From contig DATBYO010000002.1 of assembly GCA_036513655.1 (NCBI GenBank), positions 12,246-76,245 on the forward strand: a stretch of 64,000 nucleotides of DNA, written 5' to 3'. The DNA comes from Candidatus Dormiibacterota bacterium. GTDB lineage: Bacteria > Chloroflexota > Dormibacteria > CF-121. This document shows positions 28,844 to 44,724 of the stretch, in pieces (the stretch's first letter is position 1; each line of letters starts with the position of its first letter). Below the pieces are notes generated by a model. That model worked only from the letters and a program-made list of their open reading frames with translations. It did no database searches and was not told where the DNA came from. The position numbers and the translations under genes were made by a program.

Positions 28844-29899
28844 TCAGGGCGTCACGGTGAAGGCGGTTCGTGAGCTGGTGACGGCGCCGTCGCCATTGGT
28901 CAGCTGGATGACGTAGTCCTGGACGGCGCGGCCGGCCGCCACCTTTACCGTCAGGGTGGACGGGTTGACCACGGCGGCCGCGAGGCCATCGAACTCGCCG
29001 GCGGGGCTCGCCAGTGGAACGAAGTGCACCCGCAGCGTAGCCCCCGCGAGAAAGCCGGCGCCCTGGATCGTGACCAGCGTGTCTTGCGCCGTCGAGGCGC
29101 GGGTGGGGCTCACCGACTGAACGCTGGGTCCTCCGGTTGGGGCGCTGGTGCTGTCGCTGCCGCGCAGGACGAGTGTGCCGGGGAGCGGGGCGAGTGGCTT
29201 GACCGTTCCGCTCTGGCCACGCCACTGCCCGATGTCGTTCAGGCACAGATTGATCGGGAGGGCTTTCCCGCCGATGGTCAGCACGCCCAGCACCTTCCCG
29301 CCGGGCCCGATGACGGGGCCGCCGAGATTGCCCGGCAGGTCGTCGACGCGGAGGACCAGCTGCGTCGCGCTTTGTTCCGTGAGGAAGGCGGGCGTTGAGG
29401 TTCGCAGGTTCGCCACCTTCGGGCTGGCGAGGAGCACCACCGGGTCGCCGAGCTGCAATGTCGTCGGATCGCCAAACGCGATCGGCGTTCCATCGCCGGC
29501 CGCGCGAATCTGCGCGACGCCGAGGGCGGCATCGATCCCGATCACGCGCACCTGGTGCATGCCCCCGGTGTTGTCGACGAGGCGCAAGCCCTCGCTCCCG
29601 CTGACCAGGCTGGCGGCAGTAAGGAAGTCGCCCTGCGTGTCAATCAGGAAGGCGGTGCCAAAGGTGTGATCGTTGACGATGGTCATCACGCCGTCGAGAT
29701 CCCGGTCGAGCTCGTCCGGCAGGAGCACGGCGGCCGGTGGGGGCGTCGGCGTTGGGGTCGGCACCGGGGTCGGCGTCGGGCGCGCTGCCTCCAATCGCTG
29801 AACGGCGGTCGGGATCAGCACGGCCAGTCCCGCCAGGACGAAGCCGATGGCGAGCGCCGCGAGCACTTGGTCCAGCCGGTTCCGGGGAATACGACCCAC
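28844..29899 (-). CDS. Membrane-anchored trypsin-fold (S1C/Trypsin_2-like) protein with substituted catalytic His and Ser (likely pseudoprotease) plus a C-terminal Ig-like domain
   Basis: GTAFLIDTQGDFLTAASLV aligns to GSGFVIxxxGxILTNAHVV with H>S. PGNLGGPVIGPGGKVLGV aligns to PGNSGGPL with S>L. The Asp region is retained. Confidence 0.65.
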   Translation of the reverse strand: MGRIPRNRLDQVLAALAIGFVLAGLAVLIPTAVQRLEAARPTPTPVPTPTPTPPPAAVLLPDELDRDLDGVMTIVNDHTFGTAFLIDTQGDFLTAASLVSGSEGLRLVDNTGGMHQVRVIGIDAALGVAQIRAAGDGTPIAFGDPTTLQLGDPVVLLASPKVANLRTSTPAFLTEQSATQLVLRVDDLPGNLGGPVIGPGGKVLGVLTIGGKALPINLCLNDIGQWRGQSGTVKPLAPLPGTLVLRGSDSTSAPTGGPSVQSVSPTRASTAQDTLVTIQGAGFLAGATLRVHFVPLASPAGEFDGLAAAVVNPSTLTVKVAAGRAVQDYVIQLTNGDGAVTSSRTAFTVTP

Positions 29900-29965
29900 A
29901 CTCCTTCAACGAAGCAAGGGCGTGCTTTCTTGGAGGCGTCCCGGCTTTCCGATACATTCATCACG

Positions 29966-31165
29966 ATGCGGCTGCGGAATACCGAAACGAACGCAGTCCA
30001 GCCGCTCGAGCCCACTGCCCAACCGGTCGGGATCTATGTCTGCGGGATCACCCCCTACGACACGACCCATCTGGGCCATGCCTTCACCTATGTCGTGTTC
30101 GACGTGCTCGTCCGAGTGCTGCGTGGCGCCGGTCAACGGGTCCGTTATGTGCAGAACGTGACCGATGTCGACGATGACATCATCCGGCGGGCGCGCGAGC
30201 TCGGCACCACCTGGGATCACCTCGCCGACAAGGAAACCGCCCTCTACGAGGACGACATGGCGGCCCTCAACGTGCTGGCACCCGACGTGTTCCCCCGGGC
30301 CAGCCAGACCATCCCCAAGATCATCGCGATGATCGTGAAGCTCGAAGCGCGGGGCCATGCCTACCAGCGCGACGGAAACGTCTATTTCCGCGTGGGGAGC
30401 GTCGCCGACTACGGGCGCTTGAGCCGGCTGAGTCGCGAGGAGATGATCACCCTGTCTGCCCAGCGGGGCGCGGATCCGAATGACCCACGAAAGCAGGACC
30501 CGCTTGATTTCGTGCTGTGGCAGGCAAGCGCGCCGGACGAACCGCGCTGGGAGAGCCCCTGGGGCGTGGGCCGCCCGGGCTGGCATATCGAGTGCTCGGC
30601 GATGGCCCTGGAATACCTGGGCCCACAGGTCGACATCCACGGTGGCGGCGCCGACCTGATCTATCCGCATCACGAAAGCGAGATCGCGCAATCGGAGTCG
30701 GTGACCGGGGTGCGGCCCTTCGCCCGGATCTGGATGCACGTGGGCATGCTCCGTTATCAGGGAGAGAAGATGAGCAAGTCCCTGCGTAATCTGGTCCTGG
30801 TTCGTGACCTGCTGCGGCGCTACGACGCCGACAGCATTCGGGTCTTGTTGCTCCGCCACCACTATCGCGAACCATGGGAATACACCGAGGGCCAGCTCGA
30901 GGATGCCGCCGCCTGGACCAAGCGCCTGCGTGAGGCCGTGAGTCGCGTGGACAATGGCGGCGCAGACAGCGCGCTGGCCGTGCGCACGGCGCTGGAGAAC
31001 GACCTGGATACCGCGGGCGCCCTGCGCGTGCTCGAAGAGGCGGTGGGCAGCGGTGCCAGCGGCTGGGGAGCCGCCGCTGACCTGCTCGGGCTGCGGCTCA
31101 ACGCTCAGCAGGACGAGGGGACAGAAATGAAAAAGGCGCTCGGGTGGCGAGCGCCTTTCTCTTGA
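29966..31165 (+). CDS. mshC: Cysteine--1-D-myo-inosityl 2-amino-2-deoxy-alpha-D-glucopyranoside ligase-like (MshC-type CysRS paralog lacking anticodon-binding domain)
   Basis: YVCGITPYDTTHLGHA (HIGH), YVQNVTDVDDDI, GRPGWHIECSAM and KMSKS in about 400 aa; it aligns closely with mycobacterial MshC. Confidence 0.75.
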   Translation: MRLRNTETNAVQPLEPTAQPVGIYVCGITPYDTTHLGHAFTYVVFDVLVRVLRGAGQRVRYVQNVTDVDDDIIRRARELGTTWDHLADKETALYEDDMAALNVLAPDVFPRASQTIPKIIAMIVKLEARGHAYQRDGNVYFRVGSVADYGRLSRLSREEMITLSAQRGADPNDPRKQDPLDFVLWQASAPDEPRWESPWGVGRPGWHIECSAMALEYLGPQVDIHGGGADLIYPHHESEIAQSESVTGVRPFARIWMHVGMLRYQGEKMSKSLRNLVLVRDLLRRYDADSIRVLLLRHHYREPWEYTEGQLEDAAAWTKRLREAVSRVDNGGADSALAVRTALENDLDTAGALRVLEEAVGSGASGWGAAADLLGLRLNAQQDEGTEMKKALGWRAPFS

Positions 31166-38287: not shown

Positions 38288-39709
38288 ATGCTGCTTGTGG
38301 AAGTCCGCCGCCTCGATATCGCGCCGACTACCGACCAGTTCTGGACGATCGTGTCCCGGGTCAACGGCCCTGAGTTCATGGGCGTTCTCTATCGGGCGCG
38401 CGAGGCGATCTTCGACAGCGCCGGCATCACCTTCACGATCGACCTCCTGAACAAGTTCCTGCAGTTCGACGTCACCAAGAGCTGGTCCGCGGCGGATGAG
38501 GGTGAGCTCTTCATGGGGTCGGCGTCCGTTGTCGGTTGGTTGCGGGTCCGCCGCCCGGGCTCGGCGACGTTGCGCGAGCTGCGCTCCGACGACATCCACT
38601 TCATGGAGCTTGAGCACGCGGCAAAGCCCGCGTTCGTCGAGGTCGGCGTCGCCTACCGCGCCGGCGCCGAGAAGGTCAGAACGGATTTCTTGAAGCGGAT
38701 CCGCACCGCGGCCCAGGAAGCGCTCGGCCAGGAGGTGGGGACGCCATCATCGTGGCCGGTCCTCGCTCCCGTTGGCAGCCACAACTTCGACGCGATCCGC
38801 AAGTCCCGCCAGGCGACGGTCGAGGCCACAGCCGAAGAAAGCCAGGCGATGGCGGCCTTCACCACACCAGAGATTCGGGCGCTGATCCGCGACCTCGAAC
38901 GGGTCGGCTCGCTCACCGTATCGGATTTGCCCAAGGTGTTGGGTGAAGCCCAGGGAACGGCCGTCGCCGGTCGCCTTGGCGAGTTGCGGAATCTCGGCCT
39001 GATCCAGTCCGAATACGTCATCGTGTGCTCGCGCACCGGCAATGCGGTGCTGCGCACGGATGATCCCAACAAGCTGCAGAAGATGGCGCCGGATTGGATG
39101 AAGTGCGCCTGCGGCCGGCCGCTCAACGAGGAGCGGGTCGACCAGGTGATCATGCCCACCGATCGTGCCACCGCCCTCAACGACAAGGGCCGCTGGATGA
39201 CGACCCTGGCGACGGCGATCCTCCCCAAGCTGGGCATCAGCCGCGAGCAGGTCATCATCGAATCCAGCCCGGCGGGGACGGATATCGTTCTGGACCTGAG
39301 CGGTGACCTCGTCCTGGTGGTGCTCAAGGATCGGGAGTTCAACCTGGCGGATGCCTACGGCTTCAACGCCAAGGTCTCCCGCATCAAGGCCGCCGAGGGC
39401 GTGATCGTGAGCAACGAAGGTCTGTCGGGTGATGCGAAGAAGCTCGTCCAGGAAGAACTCGGTCCGCAGCGTGCGCGGATCACCGACCCCTTCCGGATTT
39501 CCTTCGTGGAGGGCGTCCAGGGCCTCGAGCACGAAATGGGACGAGTCGTGGAGCGGCGTCGCCGGCAGTACTTCCTGCGGGCGCTCGGCGATCTGGCCAC
39601 CATCCAGGGACTCAACATCGGTCAACTGGCACTGGCCAAAGTCGAAGCCGGCGGCCGCGCCGGCAAAGAAGCCGCCATCGCCCAAGAACCCGTGGCAGCG
39701 GAAGCTTAG
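38288..39709 (+). CDS. Hypothetical 473-aa protein with a central HTH-like segment, a Cys cluster (C-x14-CxC) and a C-terminal PD-(D/E)xK-like nuclease-fold signature
   Basis: GAGGAG SD 12 nt upstream of the ATG. No family recognised. Segments ...LGELRNLGLIQSEY... , CSRTGNAVL...DWMKCACGRP and DIVLDLSGDLVLVVLKDRE. Confidence 0.6.
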   Translation: MLLVEVRRLDIAPTTDQFWTIVSRVNGPEFMGVLYRAREAIFDSAGITFTIDLLNKFLQFDVTKSWSAADEGELFMGSASVVGWLRVRRPGSATLRELRSDDIHFMELEHAAKPAFVEVGVAYRAGAEKVRTDFLKRIRTAAQEALGQEVGTPSSWPVLAPVGSHNFDAIRKSRQATVEATAEESQAMAAFTTPEIRALIRDLERVGSLTVSDLPKVLGEAQGTAVAGRLGELRNLGLIQSEYVIVCSRTGNAVLRTDDPNKLQKMAPDWMKCACGRPLNEERVDQVIMPTDRATALNDKGRWMTTLATAILPKLGISREQVIIESSPAGTDIVLDLSGDLVLVVLKDREFNLADAYGFNAKVSRIKAAEGVIVSNEGLSGDAKKLVQEELGPQRARITDPFRISFVEGVQGLEHEMGRVVERRRRQYFLRALGDLATIQGLNIGQLALAKVEAGGRAGKEAAIAQEPVAAEA

Positions 39710-39910: not shown

Positions 39911-40102
39911 ATGCGTATCGGCAGCCTGATTCTTGGCCTGATTGCCATCGTTGCTGGCGGTGTCTGGATCCTGCAGGGTTCGGGCGTGCTGCCGGGAAGT
40001 TTCATGACGGGCCAGAGCATGTGGCTCATCATCGGCATCATCGTCGCGCTCGTCGGACTGGCGCTGGCTTACAACGGGATCCGCCGGCCCGCCCGGCGGT
40101 AA
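39911..40102 (+). CDS. Small two-TM membrane protein
   Basis: MRIGSLILGLIAIVAGGVWILQGSG...LIIGIIVALVGLALAY. Its end lies 4 nt before the Mo-enzyme start. Confidence 0.5.
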   Translation: MRIGSLILGLIAIVAGGVWILQGSGVLPGSFMTGQSMWLIIGIIVALVGLALAYNGIRRPARR

Positions 40103-40106
40103 CCGC

Positions 40107-41531
40107 TTGATCCGGTCGCGCCCGCTGCTCGTCGGCCTTTGCGCCGGCGCGCTGGCCGTGGGAGCCGACTACCTCGCGCATGCCTTGTTCGCGGTGCCGC
40201 TCCTGCCCGAACAGGCCGGCTACGTCCTGCTCAAGCTCTTGCCGCTCGCGACCTTCGAGAACCTGCTGAAGGCGCTGGGTGTGCTGGCCCGTCCACTGCT
40301 CCTGATCGGAGCGACGCTGGTCATCATCGCGGCCTACGGGGTTGCGGCCTGGCTGATCGCGCGGCTGCTGCCGCGCATCTGGGTGCTGGTCGTGAGCGCT
40401 GCGGTACTGGTCGTCAGCATCGTCGTCGCGATCGTTGCGCTCTCTCCGGGCGATTCGGTGGCTGGAGTCGTCGTCGAGGTGGTGCTGCTGGCCGGCATGG
40501 TCCCGATCGTCGACGTCATCTTCGGGCAGTTGTCGTCGACCCCGGTGAACGAGGACCGCCGGATCCTGCTGCGCAACCTCTTCTACGGTGCGGTCGGCAT
40601 CGCCGTGCTCGGAATCGGCTACGCGACCGTGCGCCGGTTCGCCACGGCGCTGGCCATCACGGAGGGCAACCGCGCCGGCAGCGAGGTCACCAACGTCAAC
40701 GACTTCTACGTCGTCTCCAAGAATATCGGTGGCGACCCCGTAGTCGACGCCGGAAGCTGGCGTCTCAACCTCCCGACACGGTCGCTCAGCTACGACGAGC
40801 TCCTCAAGCTGCCGGCGGAGACCGTCGAGTTGACGCTGGAGTGCATCAGCAACGATATCGGTGGCACGCTGATCAGCAACGGGATCTGGAAGGGCCCGCG
40901 GGTCAGCGAGGTCCTGGCCCTGACCACGGTTCCCTCCGACGCCACCTGGTTGCTGATGGAAAGCGCCGACGGCTACACGGAGAGCTTTCCGCTGCGCGAG
41001 TTGACGCCGGCCCACCTGCTCGCCACCCACCTCAACGGCGCACCCCTCAACCCGCAGCACGGGTTCCCGGCGCGCTTCATCTTTCCGGGCCACTACGGCA
41101 TGAAGCAGCCCAAGTGGGTCACCAGGATCCGCTTTTCCGCGAGCGACCAGCCCGGCTACTGGGAACGCAATGGCTGGGACGAGCGGGCGATCGTCAAGAC
41201 GATGTCTCGGATCGATCGGCCGCAGGACGGCGTGGCGCTGGCCGCCGGCACGGTGCAGTTTGCCGGGATCGCGTTTGCCGGGGACCGCGGCATCAGCGGT
41301 GTTGAGCTGAGTTGGGACGGCGGCCGGTCCTGGCAGGCCGCCGTGCTGCAGACCGAATTCTCCCCCTACGCCTGGCGCTTCTGGCAGCTCAGCACCAGCC
41401 TGCCTGCCGGACATTACCGGGTGAGCGTCCGCGCCCGCGATGGGCAGGGAACATTACAGTCGTCGACGCCGGCGCCCACGCTTCCGAACGGTGCCGACGG
41501 CTATCACGCGATCGGCGTCGATCTCGCCTAA
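40107..41531 (+). CDS. Membrane-anchored molybdopterin-dependent oxidoreductase (sulfite oxidase/MsrP-YedY family)
   Basis: N-terminal 5-TM domain followed by an Oxidored_molyb domain (FPARFIFPGHYGMKQPKWVTRIRF) and a Mo-co dimerisation-like C-terminus. Confidence 0.75.
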   Translation: MIRSRPLLVGLCAGALAVGADYLAHALFAVPLLPEQAGYVLLKLLPLATFENLLKALGVLARPLLLIGATLVIIAAYGVAAWLIARLLPRIWVLVVSAAVLVVSIVVAIVALSPGDSVAGVVVEVVLLAGMVPIVDVIFGQLSSTPVNEDRRILLRNLFYGAVGIAVLGIGYATVRRFATALAITEGNRAGSEVTNVNDFYVVSKNIGGDPVVDAGSWRLNLPTRSLSYDELLKLPAETVELTLECISNDIGGTLISNGIWKGPRVSEVLALTTVPSDATWLLMESADGYTESFPLRELTPAHLLATHLNGAPLNPQHGFPARFIFPGHYGMKQPKWVTRIRFSASDQPGYWERNGWDERAIVKTMSRIDRPQDGVALAAGTVQFAGIAFAGDRGISGVELSWDGGRSWQAAVLQTEFSPYAWRFWQLSTSLPAGHYRVSVRARDGQGTLQSSTPAPTLPNGADGYHAIGVDLA

Positions 41532-41650
41532 CGTTCTCAGGCGCCTCTCAGGATGGCTTCAGCCGGACGCCGAGGCCAGCCCACTACCGTAAGGTTCGAG
41601 GTCGCCGGAAAAGCATGAGCCGTCGCGTTGTAGCTGGCAGGGAGAGGAAC

Positions 41651-41824
41651 ATGTCCTCAAACGCGACGCTGAGGTGGGCGTCGGTACTGGGCACGCTGCT
41701 GCTGGCGCTGCTCTCGGGTGGCGTCGTTGCCACAGCGCCCAAGCCGGCCGAGGCGCCCCTGCACCCGACCGTCACCGTGCTGCCGAGTGATGCCACGGTC
41801 CAGAGTGAAAGCCATGTCTCGTGA
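41651..41824 (+). CDS. Small secreted peptide (57 aa) with signal peptide
   Basis: GGAGAGG SD, then MSSNATLRWASVLGTLLLALLSGGVVATAPKPAEA|PLHPTVTVLPSDATVQSESHVS. Overlaps the apbE start by about 11 nt. Confidence 0.45.
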   Translation: MSSNATLRWASVLGTLLLALLSGGVVATAPKPAEAPLHPTVTVLPSDATVQSESHVS

Positions 41825-42674
41825 ACTCACGACCCGCCATTTCGACGCGCTCGGTTCCACCTGCGAGCTGCTGAGTCTCGGCAGCGGGCAGGCGGCGCTC
41901 GAGCGTTGCGAGCGATGGATCCGCGATGCTGAGGCCCGTTTCACCAGGTTCCTCCCCGATAGCGAGTTGGCCGGCCTGAATACCAGCGATGGTCGGTACG
42001 TCCCGGTCAGTGCCGAAATGTTCGCGATGCTGCAGGCGGCACTCTGGGCATTCCAGGAAAGCGCCGGTCTCGTCAACGCCGCCGTCCTGCCCGCACTGGT
42101 CGCTGCCGGCTACGATCGGCCGTTCCGGCAAGGCCTGACGGAGCCCTCCGTTCTCAACGGGACGCAATTGCCGCCGCTTCCCGAGGTCCTGATCCTTGAC
42201 CCGGCGACGCGCTCCGCGGCGCTCGCCCCGGGCGCGGCGCTCGACCTGGGCGGGATCGTGAAGGGCGCCCTCGCCGATGCCCTCATTGATGAGCTCGGTG
42301 AGGATGCCGTCTGTAACCTGGGGGGCGATCTCCGCGTACGTGGAGCAGGGCCTGAGGGTGATGGGTGGCACATTGGCCTCTGTGATGGATCGGTCGTGGC
42401 GCTCCCCAATGGAGCGGTCTGCACCAGCGGCACGACCAGCCGGCGCTGGGGACACTCGATGCATCATCTGATCGATCCGCGCACCGGGCTACCGGCCCGA
42501 TCCGACGTCGCCGAAGTCTCCGTGGTGACGGACACGGCGCTGCGCGGTGAGGTCTACGCGAAGAGCGCGCTCCTGATGGGTGCGGCCGCCGGCACAGACT
42601 TTCTCGAGGCCAGGCGCGTGCACTACGCCACGGTGACGGCCCCCGGGACCGGGGTGCTTCCGGCGGCGGCGTGA
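41814..42674 (+). CDS. FAD:protein FMN transferase (ApbE family), apparently lacking a signal peptide
   Basis: ApbE motifs LDLGGIVKG and TSGTTSRRW...HLIDPRTGLP. ATG at 41814. Confidence 0.8.
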   Translation: MSRELTTRHFDALGSTCELLSLGSGQAALERCERWIRDAEARFTRFLPDSELAGLNTSDGRYVPVSAEMFAMLQAALWAFQESAGLVNAAVLPALVAAGYDRPFRQGLTEPSVLNGTQLPPLPEVLILDPATRSAALAPGAALDLGGIVKGALADALIDELGEDAVCNLGGDLRVRGAGPEGDGWHIGLCDGSVVALPNGAVCTSGTTSRRWGHSMHHLIDPRTGLPARSDVAEVSVVTDTALRGEVYAKSALLMGAAAGTDFLEARRVHYATVTAPGTGVLPAAA

Positions 42675-43216
42675 GTATTGACCAGTTCCTCTGGCTGACG
42701 TCGCGCGCGGCGGCGCTGACGGCCTTCTTCGTCCTGTCGGCGGCGCTCGTCACCGGCCAGGCAATGCGGAGCGCGATGTTCGAAGGGGCCATGCGCAATC
42801 GCGATCTCTCCAACCTGCACCGGTTCCTGACGGTGTGCTGGGTCCCGCTCGTTGGCCTCCACGTGCTGGCGATCACACTGGACGCGGTGGCACGGGTCAG
42901 TCCGATCGACCTCGTCATCCCATTCCGGGTCTCCTATGCTGCCGTCGCGATCGGCCTGGGCACCATCGGATTCGACCTCCTGATCGTCATCACCGTGACC
43001 AGCTACATGCGGCGGCGTCTCGATCCGATCGCCTGGCGGTGGCTGCACCGCCTCTCCTATCTGATGTTCGCCCTCTTTGCCCTCCACGCTCTGTTGGCCG
43101 GCACGGATTTCTCGCGCCCCGTCGTCCTGGCTCCGGCTGCCGGTGTGATCGCCTTCATTGCCATCGTGAGCCTGGCTCGGCTCGCATTCGGTCGCATGGA
43201 AACGACCCCCCGTTAG
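42671..43216 (+). CDS. Ferric-reductase-like transmembrane heme-b protein (MsrQ/YedZ-like)
   Basis: 6-TM protein with conserved His pairs (HVLAITLDA; HRLSYLMFALFALHALL). The GTG start overlaps the apbE stop (GTGA). Confidence 0.7.
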   Translation: MSIDQFLWLTSRAAALTAFFVLSAALVTGQAMRSAMFEGAMRNRDLSNLHRFLTVCWVPLVGLHVLAITLDAVARVSPIDLVIPFRVSYAAVAIGLGTIGFDLLIVITVTSYMRRRLDPIAWRWLHRLSYLMFALFALHALLAGTDFSRPVVLAPAAGVIAFIAIVSLARLAFGRMETTPR

Positions 43217-43229
43217 ACTCGTCGGCACG

Positions 43230-43997
43230 ATGCAGGACTGGCACCGGGCGATTGCCTTCATGCGCGCCGTCGATGAGCGAGCCGCTGAGGAAGTGGTGCC
43301 GTTTCGCTGGGGCCGGGCGCTGATCAACCGTCGTCTTGACCGGGTACACGATCTCAACTTTCTGATCGTGGACCGGCTCGACGGCGCCGACGCAGCCGGT
43401 CTAGCCGCGGAAGCGGATCGGATCCAGGGCGAAGCCGGCCTGTCACACCGGCGCCTCAATGTGGACGATCCGCCCGCCGCCGACCGACTCGCCGTCGGCT
43501 TCGAAGCGCTGGGGTACACACCGGAACGATTTGTGATCATGGCGCACCGCCGGCGCCCGGTCCAGGTCGTCGACACCGGAAGTGTTCGCCAGGTCGGCTG
43601 GGACGTTCTTCGACCGGCCCGAGAGCGCCAGATCGCCAGCCAGCCCTGGGGCAAGGACCCGGCCGTGGTCCAGCAGATCCTGGCCAAGCATGAGTTGACC
43701 GCGAAGGGCACGAGGACGCAGTATTTCGCGGTGGTCATCGATGGCCTGGCGGTGTCATCGTGCGAGCTCCGCACCGATGGCGCGACGGCCCAGCTGGAAA
43801 CGGTGGAGACGCTCGAACATTTCCGTAAACGTGGCTTCTCGCGGGCGGTCGTCAGCGCGGCGCTCGAGGCGGCACGCGGATATGAGTTCGTGTTTCTCGT
43901 GACCGACGCGGGCGACTGGCCGCAGCAGTTCTATCGCGGGCTCGGCTTCGACGACGTCGGTATCGAGTCGAGGTTCCTGCGATTCGTCGATGCCTGA
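43230..43997 (+). CDS. GNAT family N-acetyltransferase (two-domain)
   Basis: C-terminal GNAT motifs HFRKRGFSRAVVSAALEAARG...VFLVTDAG...FYRGLGF. Confidence 0.7.
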   Translation: MQDWHRAIAFMRAVDERAAEEVVPFRWGRALINRRLDRVHDLNFLIVDRLDGADAAGLAAEADRIQGEAGLSHRRLNVDDPPAADRLAVGFEALGYTPERFVIMAHRRRPVQVVDTGSVRQVGWDVLRPARERQIASQPWGKDPAVVQQILAKHELTAKGTRTQYFAVVIDGLAVSSCELRTDGATAQLETVETLEHFRKRGFSRAVVSAALEAARGYEFVFLVTDAGDWPQQFYRGLGFDDVGIESRFLRFVDA

Positions 43998-44724
43998 CCA
44001 GCCCACCCTGAGCCAGGCCTGGGAGTCCGTCGCGAAGCAATGGTTGGCGTGGGCGCGCAAGCCGGGCCATGACAGCTACTGGCGTTTTCACCGGGATCCC
44101 TTCTTCGCGCTGTTGCCGCCGCCCGGTCGCCTCACCATCGACATTGGATGCGGCGAGGGGCGCGTCGCTCGAGACCTCAAGTCGATCGGTCATAACGTGA
44201 TCGCGGTGGACGCCTCGCCCACCATGGTGCGGTTCGCAAGGGAAGCGGATCCGTCGATGCAGGTGGTCGTCGCCGACGCCGCCCGGTTGCCGTTCGAGGA
44301 TGGTGTTGCTGATCTTGCAGTTGCGTTCATGTCGCTGCACGACGTGGACGACATGCCCGCGGCTATCGGCGAAGCTGCACGTGTCCTCGGGGGCGGAGGG
44401 GTGCTGGCCATGGCACTTGTCCACCCCATCAACTCTGCCGGTCAGTTCGAGAGCCTGGCGCCCGACGCGCGGTTTGTCATCGAGGGCTCGTATCTCGATC
44501 CGCACCGCTACCAGGAGACGATCGAGCGGGATGGTCTGCCGATGACGTTCAATAGCTGCCACCGGCCACTGGCCGCCTACTTCGAGGCCCTGGAGCGCGC
44601 CGGCTTGCTGGTCGAAACGCTTCGTGAGTTGACCGTCGACGCGTCATCGGTGAGCGAGCGCGCGGACCGCGCTCGGTGGCTGCGGGTTCCGCTCTTCCTC
44701 GACCTGCGCGCTCGCAAACGCTAG
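43990..44724 (+). CDS. Class I SAM-dependent methyltransferase
   Basis: Motif I LTIDIGCGEGRVA, motif II VVVADAARLPF. Overlaps the upstream gene by 8 nt. Confidence 0.8.
   Translation: MPDQPTLSQAWESVAKQWLAWARKPGHDSYWRFHRDPFFALLPPPGRLTIDIGCGEGRVARDLKSIGHNVIAVDASPTMVRFAREADPSMQVVVADAARLPFEDGVADLAVAFMSLHDVDDMPAAIGEAARVLGGGGVLAMALVHPINSAGQFESLAPDARFVIEGSYLDPHRYQETIERDGLPMTFNSCHRPLAAYFEALERAGLLVETLRELTVDASSVSERADRARWLRVPLFLDLRARKR

Follow-up and report, generated by a model that had tools for sequence, protein, structure and literature searches.

A three-gene cassette of a small membrane protein, a signal-less ApbE and a two-heme cytochrome, adjoining a membrane-anchored molybdenum enzyme in Candidatus Dormibacterota

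A block of five genes (39911-43216, + strand) is analysed here from a 64,000-nucleotide stretch (the window) of contig DATBYO010000002.1 of Candidatus Dormibacterota (67% guanine plus cytosine, GC), with identical proteins on deposit from Candidatus Dormibacteraeota metagenome-assembled genomes. The block consists of two units: (i) module A, which encodes a 63-residue membrane protein (sm63) and a molybdenum (Mo) enzyme, and (ii) module B, a cassette which encodes a 57-residue mini-protein, an ApbE-family flavin transferase and a two-heme cytochrome. The cassette is widespread yet has gone undescribed, and is a variant, not recognised before, of the electron-transfer system called 'MsrQ-like', which is associated with flavinylation. 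In the preferred reading, which is given a probability of roughly 40%, the mini-protein is flavinylated and serves with the cytochrome as an outward electron conduit that is joined to the Mo-enzyme. The features of the cassette include the following, where pN/pS is the ratio of nonsynonymous to synonymous differences, FAD and FMN are flavin adenine dinucleotide and flavin mononucleotide, and E is the expectation value.

41651-41824, + strand: mini-protein, 57 residues, single-pass, encoded at the 5' end of the cassette; candidate flavin carrier or cytochrome subunit; own-frame pN/pS 0.30; found in 75 clusters; deposited as hypothetical protein HEY4844144.1.
41795-41797, + strand: Thr49 in S46-D47-A48-T49, a near-canonical, clade-specific candidate site; Thr or Ser in 69 of 76 sequences.
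41810-41821, + strand: S54-H55-V56-S57, the family-wide C-terminal motif [ST]-x-[AVGS]-Ser-COOH; its CAT GTC codons embed the ATG of the ApbE gene.
41814-42674, + strand: ApbE of the FAD:protein FMN transferase family, 286 residues from the ATG; Pfam ApbE, E 3e-43; 11-nucleotide overlap with the mini-protein gene.
42671-43216, + strand: ferric-reductase-domain (MsrQ-like) cytochrome, 181 residues, five helices; Pfam Ferric_reduct, E 6e-6, just below the gathering score.
43100-43108, + strand: Gly144-Thr145-Asp146, just past the outer-heme ligand in an outer loop; rival candidate site for FMN attachment or flavin docking; 49 of 52 cassette cytochromes read [AS]-G-[TS]-D.

Five co-oriented open reading frames (ORFs) at 39911-40102, 40107-41531, 41651-41824, 41814-42674 and 42671-43216 are confirmed on the + strand, as the original prediction, made from the sequence alone, had called them, and Pfam bears out the identities given to the Mo-enzyme, the ApbE and the heme protein. 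The junctions measure, in order, +4, +119, -11 and -4 nucleotides (nt); thus, the genes are tightly packed except at the 119-nt gap upstream of the 57-residue ORF, and the earlier description of 4-nt gaps or overlaps is correct only in part. A single five-gene unit, as first proposed, is not sustained by comparison, as the order is held in close Dormibacterota relatives only. Among 80 genome loci examined for gene order around relatives of the Mo-enzyme, the peptide, ApbE and cytochrome genes lie downstream of the Mo gene only in Dormibacterota relatives in which the Mo-enzyme is at least 73% identical. The cassette is absent at the equivalent position in Candidatus Dormibacter (69-70% identity), where a GNAT gene is directly 3' of the Mo gene, and in the Limnocylindrales (61% identity), and neither an ApbE nor a cytochrome gene was found within 6 kb in some 60 loci with more distant Mo-enzymes. 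Even the most divergent of the peptide clusters retain the same context and differ in the genes 3' of the cytochrome; a boundary of recombination or insertion seems to lie at the 3' end of the cassette. Overall, the observation of the original prediction is largely right and its interpretation is upheld in part: the identities and the signal-less ApbE stand, the five-gene unit and the MsrP label do not, and cleavage of the mini-protein is improbable.

The distribution of the cassette was assessed in 80 metagenome loci fetched around signal-less ApbEs from outside the clade, 51 of which have enough flanking sequence. The cytochrome gene is directly 3' of the ApbE gene in 42 of these 51 loci and, in 39 of the 42, a small one-helix ORF, whose frame relative to ApbE may be any of the three, runs up to the ApbE start. 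The small proteins are 57-160 residues in length, with tails composed to 70-90% of Pro, Ser, Thr, Ala, Gly, Gln, Asn or Val, and the divergent members have three to eight Lys/Arg residues before the helix, which indicates an N-in, C-out topology. Cassettes range in GC from 0.40 to 0.74 and are found in an Anaerolineaceae metagenome-assembled genome and on plasmids of Mycobacterium, Rhodococcus and Alicyclobacillus. In Mycobacterium sp. JS623, the ApbE is preceded by a 157-residue hypothetical protein (WP_015297701.1; L173, 2581-3054) ending in SHGS, NuoF-like and ferredoxin genes lie 3' of the cytochrome gene, and a gene for a VIT1 iron transporter is nearby. The Rhodococcus qingshengii plasmid NZ_AP023173.1 (L174, 2785-3060) has a 91-residue single-pass ORF, missing from the gene table and ending in ARSAGS, directly 5' of the ApbE gene, and NuoF-like and ferredoxin genes again follow the cytochrome. 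A divergently transcribed two-component system is upstream of both the Mycobacterium and the Rhodococcus clusters. In Alicyclobacillus fastidiosus, the small protein reaches 236 residues, combines its helix with a peptidoglycan-binding domain and ends in SASSP. Dormibacterota also have a paralogous cassette (L171, 5190-9580; ENA ERZ19973474), arranged as a tight operon of DUF1800, DUF1501, a 76-residue small protein, ApbE and cytochrome. A homologue of this DUF1501 protein (L104) has the twin-arginine translocation (Tat)-type signal RRDFLKAG, and in both Dormibacterota contexts the gene just 5' of the small ORF is predicted to encode a Tat-dependent exported protein. The partners common to all of the cassettes are the small protein and the cytochrome only.

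The 57-residue ORF is a genuine coding gene. Among 19 distinct nucleotide sequences, the pN/pS of 0.30 in its own frame compares with 1.04 when read in the frame of ApbE and 3.38 in the remaining frame; thus, purifying selection acts in the peptide's own frame only. The tail (residues 42-54) has a pN/pS of 0.27, and the genes neighbouring the ORF have values of 0.11-0.37. In its 75 protein clusters, the mini-protein is always 57 residues, or 68-70 residues when an upstream ATG is called. A profile search recovers 912 members of the small-protein family which, among the matches listed, are all unnamed or hypothetical and without a Pfam domain, and no family model for the mini-protein is present in Pfam or NCBIfam. 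The mini-protein aligns with the 76-residue Dormibacterota paralogues through an invariant A-P-L-x-P-x-V after the helix and a final Ser. One 434-residue ENA entry in a small-protein cluster of the L160 type (P0497) is a miscall in which an upstream histidine kinase is merged with the small protein, there being no in-frame stop between them, and exemplifies a route by which such small genes become mis-annotated. Two other readings of the ORF were rejected. Frameshifting or readthrough that fuses the mini-protein to the ApbE as an anchor is at odds with own-frame purifying selection up to the stop codon, with the lack of any fusion in the 75 peptide clusters and with a frame relation of 0, +1 or +2 depending on the lineage. 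Export of the mini-protein by Tat was considered as the Dormibacterota paralogues begin with M-R-x-F-L-L-K, but the Arg is single and is missing in divergent members.

The mini-protein probably remains uncleaved and spans the membrane once, leaving a tail of about 28 residues. Its N-terminal hydrophobic helix could be called a signal peptide by a predictor, and the original prediction had described a secreted mini-protein cleaved between Ala35 and Pro36. Ala33-Glu34-Ala35 is followed by Pro36 in 75 of 76 sequences. A Pro at +1 blocks cleavage by signal peptidase I; thus, the conserved Pro36 after Ala-x-Ala argues against cleavage. The broader form of this scenario, in which the locus is a single MsrP/MsrQ-type operon and a 57-residue precursor releases a 22-residue secreted peptide, agrees with the co-oriented, closely spaced genes and with the hydrophobic segment that leads into Ala-x-Ala. 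It is, however, very improbable and already largely refuted by comparison with relatives: in addition to the Pro at +1, the homologues have tails of 50-130 residues in which no cleavage site is conserved, the order of the five genes is confined to one clade and the Mo-enzyme scores far below the cutoff of the MsrP model (32 bits versus 207).

The ApbE is predicted to be an FAD:protein FMN transferase by fold and by the catalytic motifs DLGGIxKG, GGD, TS and HHLIDPRTG, the columns of which are invariant across 11 relatives including the window protein, and it is translationally coupled to the mini-protein via the 11-nt overlap. Six residues precede the first strand of its domain, no segment of the protein is hydrophobic, and a longer form from a GTG at 41718 was rejected as the in-frame extension evolves neutrally. 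Thus, the ApbE is without a signal peptide, as noticed at the outset, whereas a lipoprotein or secretion signal at the N-terminus is typical of ApbEs, if not universal. The nearest out-of-clade relatives (40-50% identity) mostly start at the catalytic domain and also lack a signal, and a few close relatives (P0227 and P0339) bear an in-frame N-terminal helix and a long low-complexity linker.

The canonical flavinylation motif [ST]GA[ST] is absent from all five cluster proteins, a point on which the original prediction was correct, although it overlooked near-canonical sites in the mini-protein. The fuller motif D-x-x-[ST]GA[ST] occurs in none of 374 neighbouring ORFs around 77 related loci, in which the bare [ST]GA[ST] is observed 14 times compared to 17 expected. 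Similarly, [ST]G[AG][ST] is not found in the proteins of the three plasmid clusters and no protein of the window's cluster matches the Pfam FMN_bind domain (PF04205). The NuoF-like protein was rejected as a substrate in the Actinobacteria as it has no flavinylation motif, and a canonical ApbE substrate elsewhere in the window was rejected as the lone D-x-x-TGAT sits in a shadow ORF. This D-P-L-T-G-A-T sequence is in an antisense ORF (29906-30862, - strand) opposite a cysteinyl-tRNA-synthetase/MshC-like gene with a KMSKS motif (29555-31165, + strand) and is an example of a trap for motif scans in high-GC genomes.

Among the candidates for the substrate that ApbE lacks here, the mini-protein family is placed first. 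The small protein is encoded immediately 5' of the ApbE and is translationally coupled to it, which is the usual position of an ApbE substrate gene. Of the 39 small ORFs of the metagenome loci, 36 end in [ST]-x-[AVGS]-S[RKH]? and the other three in a looser [ST]-x-x-S, whereas, among all ORFs of 35 residues or more in the same loci, 1.8% have the strict motif at their end. The motif, with family variants that include SGGS and TGGS, resembles the ApbE site [ST]GA[ST] without matching it. It persists (TRSSR, TKSS, TRAS, TQSSK, TGGS and SGGS) where the ribosome-binding site and start of the ApbE gene follow the stop codon, and in these non-overlapping loci it is kept with free synonymous variation; thus, selection acts on the protein. 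The second candidate site, S46-D47-A48-T49, has Gly at position 47 in four sequences, with P0124 and P0135 reading the canonical SGAT, and is not kept in the wider small-protein family. A 7-residue tag is sufficient for ApbE and works best at protein termini, with A-to-V or G-to-A changes leaving about 50% flavinylation and changes of the Asp mattering little (PMC12052999), and an FMN reductase is flavinylated on a Ser of its unstructured C-terminal extension (PMC11334425).

The cytochrome gene (PF01794) adjoins apbE with a 4-nt overlap and encodes four His residues that are invariant in 52 homologues (codons at 42818, 42860, 43046 and 43085). Of these, His50 and His126 would ligate an inner heme and His64 and His139 an outer heme. 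The outer face of the protein is unusually conserved (W8, R12, D71, P84, F85, Y89, G144, T145 and D146). Against the NCBIfam MsrQ model NF003831, the cytochrome scores 16.3 bits with a cutoff of 130; it shares the general ferric-reductase domain only. The topologies of the cytochrome and the small protein were derived from hydropathy and charge distribution; by this positive-inside rule, the candidate sites on the mini-protein tail and on the cytochrome loop are both predicted to be extracytoplasmic.

The cytochrome itself may instead be the ApbE substrate, with FMN on Thr145 and the mini-protein as a structural or assembly subunit. Thr145 is six residues past the outer-heme ligand His139, an ideal location for electron transfer, and the membrane-integral subunits NqrB and RnfD set a precedent for flavinylation. 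The loop motif is also conserved as NGTD in Mycobacterium and Rhodococcus and SGTD in Alicyclobacillus, and the three exceptions to G-[TS]-D (L134, L136 and L145) carry AGAT, SGAS or AGAS in the same loop. The small proteins of L134 and L136 end in a weaker TRQS, and the flavin site could have moved between the small protein and the cytochrome in these two loci. By contrast, the G-[TS] of the loop is without the canonical Ala at -1 and has a hydrophobic residue instead of Ser/Thr at -3, the three exceptions amount to two independent lineages only and the conserved Thr could merely bind a heme propionate. An extracytoplasmic loop is also inserted co-translationally and would be harder for a signal-less ApbE to reach than a free tail. 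As the free tail of a short protein that is inserted post-translationally could be modified prior to export and a polytopic loop hardly so, the mini-protein is ranked above the cytochrome, which is considered an unlikely substrate. Two 5-residue sequences are shared between proteins of the block: PSDAT in the Mo-enzyme (residues 276-280, 40932-40946) and the peptide (residues 45-49, 41783-41797), and AGTDF in the ApbE (residues 259-263, 42587-42601) and the cytochrome (residues 143-147, 43097-43111). The partner positions are not conserved in homologues and the matches are, thus, judged coincidental.

A further explanation assigns the mini-protein a role as membrane partner of the cytochrome, comparable to p22phox and NOX2, or regards it as the remnant of an ApbE anchor, while the ApbE serves an unlinked cytoplasmic protein or flavin trafficking; the cassette would then have no part that is flavinylated outside the cell. 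The ApbE is signal-less throughout, the ApbEs of P0227 and P0339 have just such an in-frame helix and low-complexity linker, and the conserved juxtamembrane residues of the small protein suggest helix packing. Moreover, cytosolic ApbEs with cytosolic substrates exist (PMC12052999). This explanation leaves unaccounted for both the conservation of the C-terminus at the amino-acid level across divergent, low-complexity tails and the invariable place of the ApbE gene between two genes for membrane proteins, and a cytoplasmic protein with a flavinylation motif is not found in any cluster. It is, likewise, held to be improbable.

Returning to the flavinylated mini-protein, the scheme proposed here infers where the flavin is attached, whether modification precedes export, which way electrons flow and whether the Mo-enzyme is coupled to the cassette. 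ApbE would attach FMN from FAD to a Ser/Thr of the mini-protein, most likely the invariant Ser57 and, in the clade of the window, possibly Thr49. As the ApbE has no export signal, the tail is proposed to be modified in the cytoplasm and translocated afterwards. The helix and juxtamembrane A-P-L-x-P-x-V of the mini-protein would pack against the cytochrome, such that the tethered flavin may dock on the conserved outer face near the outer heme. Electrons would pass from quinol or a cytoplasmic donor to the inner heme, the outer heme, the flavin and an extracytoplasmic acceptor. The donor in Actinobacteria may be the co-encoded NuoF-like protein and ferredoxin, while the acceptor in the Dormibacterota clade would most likely be the adjacent Mo-enzyme, by analogy with MsrQ feeding MsrP. 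The reverse flow is possible, in which the Mo-enzyme oxidises its substrate and electrons pass inward through the cassette. The theme recognised in the original prediction, an ApbE-linked extracytosolic redox module, is supported.

The features of module A and of the spacer that separates it from the cassette are as follows.

39911-40102, + strand: sm63, 63-residue membrane protein; two hydrophobic helices and a basic C-terminus; pN/pS 0.37.
40107-41531, + strand: Mo-enzyme, 474 residues, polytopic; about five helices in an N-terminal membrane domain, followed by a catalytic domain of sulfite-oxidase fold and an Ig-like dimerisation domain.
40557-40619, + strand: twin-arginine R151-R152, then a weakly hydrophobic helix 5, then R176-R177; RRILLRNLFYGAVGIAVLGIG then YATVRRF.
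40842-40844, + strand: Cys246 (motif LECISN), candidate Mo ligand; one of two Cys in the Mo-enzyme; invariant in alignment A1.
41532-41650, + strand: spacer between module A and the cassette, 119 nt; the Shine-Dalgarno-like GGGAGAGG lies five bases 5' of the peptide ATG.

The sm63 protein is the partner of the Mo-enzyme: each Dormibacterota or Limnocylindrales locus has the sm63 gene directly 5' of the Mo gene, and in two Deinococcales loci (L055 and L061) it is detectable there as well. The Mo-enzyme matches the Pfam domains Oxidored_molyb (E 5e-35, residues 211-352) and Mo-co_dimer (E 3e-7, residues 369-451), which are preceded by about 190 hydrophobic residues. Its earlier assignment to the MsrP family was loose: the NCBIfam MsrP model NF003767 aligns with residues 290-355 only, at 32.2 bits with a cutoff of 207, while the best, though partial and sub-threshold, family-model matches are to the sulfite dehydrogenases SorT, SoxC and SorA (95, 89 and 81 bits with cutoffs of 570, 420 and 600, respectively). 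Similarly, in the PDB, sulfite oxidases and dehydrogenases are matched at E of about 1e-18 compared to 5e-4 for YedY (1xdq). Aligned to chicken sulfite oxidase, the Mo-enzyme is missing a loop of about 15 residues after the Cys ligand (CISN-DIGG; LEC246ISN-DIGG), and it is this loop which, in the chicken enzyme, presumably carries the sulfite-binding Arg190. The assignment of Cys246 as candidate Mo ligand is based on the family.

An N-terminal 5-transmembrane anchor had been noted as a peculiarity of this Mo-enzyme; about five helices are indeed present, but such an architecture is already described for the Sco3746 family (PMC5449189). R151, R152, R176 and R177 are invariant in 15 homologues. 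A twin-arginine before helix 5 and positive charges after it are the signature of dual insertion by the general secretory (Sec) and Tat pathways, and the Mo catalytic domain is predicted to be placed outside the cytoplasmic membrane through such combined Sec and Tat insertion. Within residues 1-200, H25 is the sole His; thus, the two hemes predicted for the Sco3746 family cannot be held by this membrane domain.

The link of the cassette to the Mo-enzyme is plausible as a lineage-specific one, based on adjacency, a common strand, the lack of a terminator-like site and the intactness of the block within the clade. Alternatively, the two are neighbours through insertion only, and the cassette is a general outward conduit, for example for iron reduction, a role proposed for MsrQ-like systems; this explanation is compatible with any model of flavinylation. 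The cassette is, as noted, absent beside the Mo gene in Candidatus Dormibacter, the Limnocylindrales and the distant loci, the 119-nt spacer sets it off and a variable region lies downstream. It also occurs in other contexts, including near a VIT1 iron transporter, a neighbour also noted in PMC8238504. Against insertion alone, all 75 peptide clusters whose context was examined have the Mo gene directly upstream on the same strand, and neither a terminator-like nor a promoter-like site was found between the modules in a scan for sigma-70-type promoters and intrinsic terminators only. MsrP-MsrQ is a precedent for such a pairing, and a Mo-enzyme with no heme-binding His in its membrane domain needs an external redox partner. 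Chance neighbourhood by insertion is a serious explanation, tentatively placed at somewhat less than even odds.

Other features of the region are noted here. A riboswitch or other RNA element in the spacer was rejected, as there is no Rfam match at E up to 1 and the RNA fold is non-significant (z = 0.49). The spacer is conserved as DNA at 41560-41650, yet an indel shifts its frame among relatives, and the first 11 codons of the peptide ORF (41651-41683) have a pS of 0.08 compared to 0.33-0.63 over the remainder. These observations point to nucleotide-level constraint at 41560-41683, e.g., for translation initiation or regulation. On the 5' side of the block, a 473-residue protein with no Pfam or NCBIfam match is encoded at 38288-39709 (+ strand), about 200 nt from the sm63 gene. 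Its gene accompanies the sm63 and Mo genes in every Dormibacterota and Limnocylindrales locus, those without the cassette included, and is the most constrained of the block (pN/pS 0.11). On the 3' side, a GNAT gene and a methyltransferase gene follow the cytochrome (43230-44724), while ribosomal-protein-S4-like or YtfJ-like genes are among those at the equivalent positions in the relatives L005, L086 and L088.

Several observations weigh against a flavinylated mini-protein that feeds the Mo-enzyme. The data had already been inspected when the C-terminal motif was defined, and kinship links many of the loci. Its position -2 is highly variable (Y, H, R, Q, K, G, N or S), and position -1 is often V, G or S and not the canonical Ala. 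In the clade of the window, the last four codons of the peptide overlap the ApbE start (the ATG is embedded in CAT GTC TCG TGA) and, thus, conservation within this clade is confounded, while Thr49 is replaced by Ala, Pro, Val or Met in seven of 76 sequences. The cytochrome has its own conserved outer-loop Thr, with exceptions that carry GA[ST]. The ApbE has no export signal in every cassette, and the mini-protein tail is predicted to be outside; we know of no precedent for modification before export. In one close relative (L001, 6710-7697; JGI Ga0683348_0000022), the peptide and ApbE are kept and the cytochrome is gone, with 115 nt between the end of the ApbE gene and a GNAT gene. The neighbours of the paralogous cassette, DUF1800/DUF1501, are not known to be redox enzymes, and in Candidatus Dormibacter and the Limnocylindrales the genes for the 473-residue protein, sm63 and the Mo-enzyme are retained without the cassette; these other contexts and cassette-free Mo-enzymes weaken the coupling to the Mo-enzyme. 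Structure predictions were too poor for a fold search, with a predicted local distance difference test score (pLDDT) of 43 for the Mo-enzyme with 15 close homologues, and a pLDDT of 61 and a predicted template-modelling score of 0.38 for the cytochrome alone.

ApbE-dependent flavinylation is the chief known means by which bacteria place flavins outside the cytoplasm, and the catalogue of ApbE substrates (FMN-bind, NqrB/RnfD, DUF2271, DUF3570, Flavodoxin_4 and FMN_red) is thought to be incomplete. The cassette is without every known substrate, and screens that demand signal peptides or known domains would have missed such loci. If the mini-protein or the cytochrome loop is flavinylated, the cassette adds a substrate class and a minimal NOX-like electron conduit, and the signal-less ApbE raises the mechanistic question of whether modification takes place inside or outside the cell. 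A more general proposal is that the small single-pass proteins form a new class of ApbE substrates, flavinylated on the C-terminal Ser, prior to translocation of the unstructured tail, by a cytoplasmic ApbE that coupled translation yields from the same mRNA, in a cassette that is portable across exported enzymes. This generalisation is rather doubtful; if true, a flexible leash would hold a flavin by the outer side of a minimal cytochrome with two hemes, with no need for FAD export, and the cassette would feed different exported enzymes according to lineage (the Mo-enzyme, DUF1501/DUF1800 and NuoF-fed systems). As the cassette is on plasmids of cultivable Rhodococcus, Mycobacterium and Alicyclobacillus, it is directly testable. 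Dormibacterota are an abundant, uncultured soil phylum, for which the locus suggests a route by which a heme-less, membrane-anchored Mo-enzyme obtains or disposes of electrons.

Of the known systems, the closest to the cassette are the clusters of MsrQ-like and apbE genes, proposed as transmembrane conduits that carry electrons outward from donors in the cytosol or the membrane (Meheust et al. 2021, eLife, PMC8238504). As described in that paper, these clusters share with the cassette a PF01794 two-heme membrane protein beside apbE (within five genes), and NuoF-like or VIT1 genes adjoin some of them, similar to the Mycobacterium and Rhodococcus cassettes. The clusters typically include a gene for an FMN-binding domain (PF04205), which the window cassette is without; the small single-pass protein takes the place of this substrate gene. 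According to the same paper, they were also selected for a signal peptide or lipidation site on the ApbE or its substrate; the window ApbE has neither, and the hydrophobic helix of the mini-protein is one that a predictor might call a signal peptide. The mini-protein is not among the substrates in PMC8238504 or in its 2024 follow-up (PMC11334425), and PMC8238504 names no link to a Mo-enzyme ('molybd' has 0 occurrences).

The other systems resemble the locus in part. MsrP-MsrQ of E. coli (YedY-YedZ) likewise pairs an extramembrane sulfite-oxidase-fold Mo-enzyme with a ferric-reductase-domain heme protein encoded beside it. E. coli MsrP is, however, soluble, exported by Tat and without a dimerisation domain, while the Mo-enzyme of the window is polytopic and has Mo-co_dimer; the E. 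coli system also has no ApbE or mini-protein, and the window cytochrome reaches 16 of the 130 bits demanded by the MsrQ model. The Sco3746-type proteins, homologues of which are reported in Chloroflexi, share with the window Mo-enzyme five N-terminal helices, a twin-arginine before a weakly hydrophobic helix 5, positive charges after this helix and a C-terminal molybdenum cofactor domain (Tooke et al. 2017, eLife, PMC5449189). Sco3746 has conserved His residues in helices 2-4 that are predicted to bind two b hemes (PMC5449189), and the window protein is without them. With a single His in the membrane domain, the heme function of the window system appears to sit in the separate cytochrome gene. 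The C-terminal extension of the FMN reductase (Huang et al. 2024, PMC11334425) and the Flavin-tag (PMC12052999) share with the mini-protein a Ser/Thr in a short unstructured terminal segment, and in both systems the attached flavin docks to a nearby site, as is proposed here. Their substrates have a motif like [ST]GA[ST] on a folded flavoprotein, while the candidate in the cassette is a low-complexity tail, anchored in the membrane, whose extreme C-terminus reads [ST]-x-[AVGS]-Ser and whose flavin would dock on another protein. Relative to the known systems, what is new is the conserved mini-protein together with a signal-less ApbE, the architecture of the Mo-enzyme being already known.

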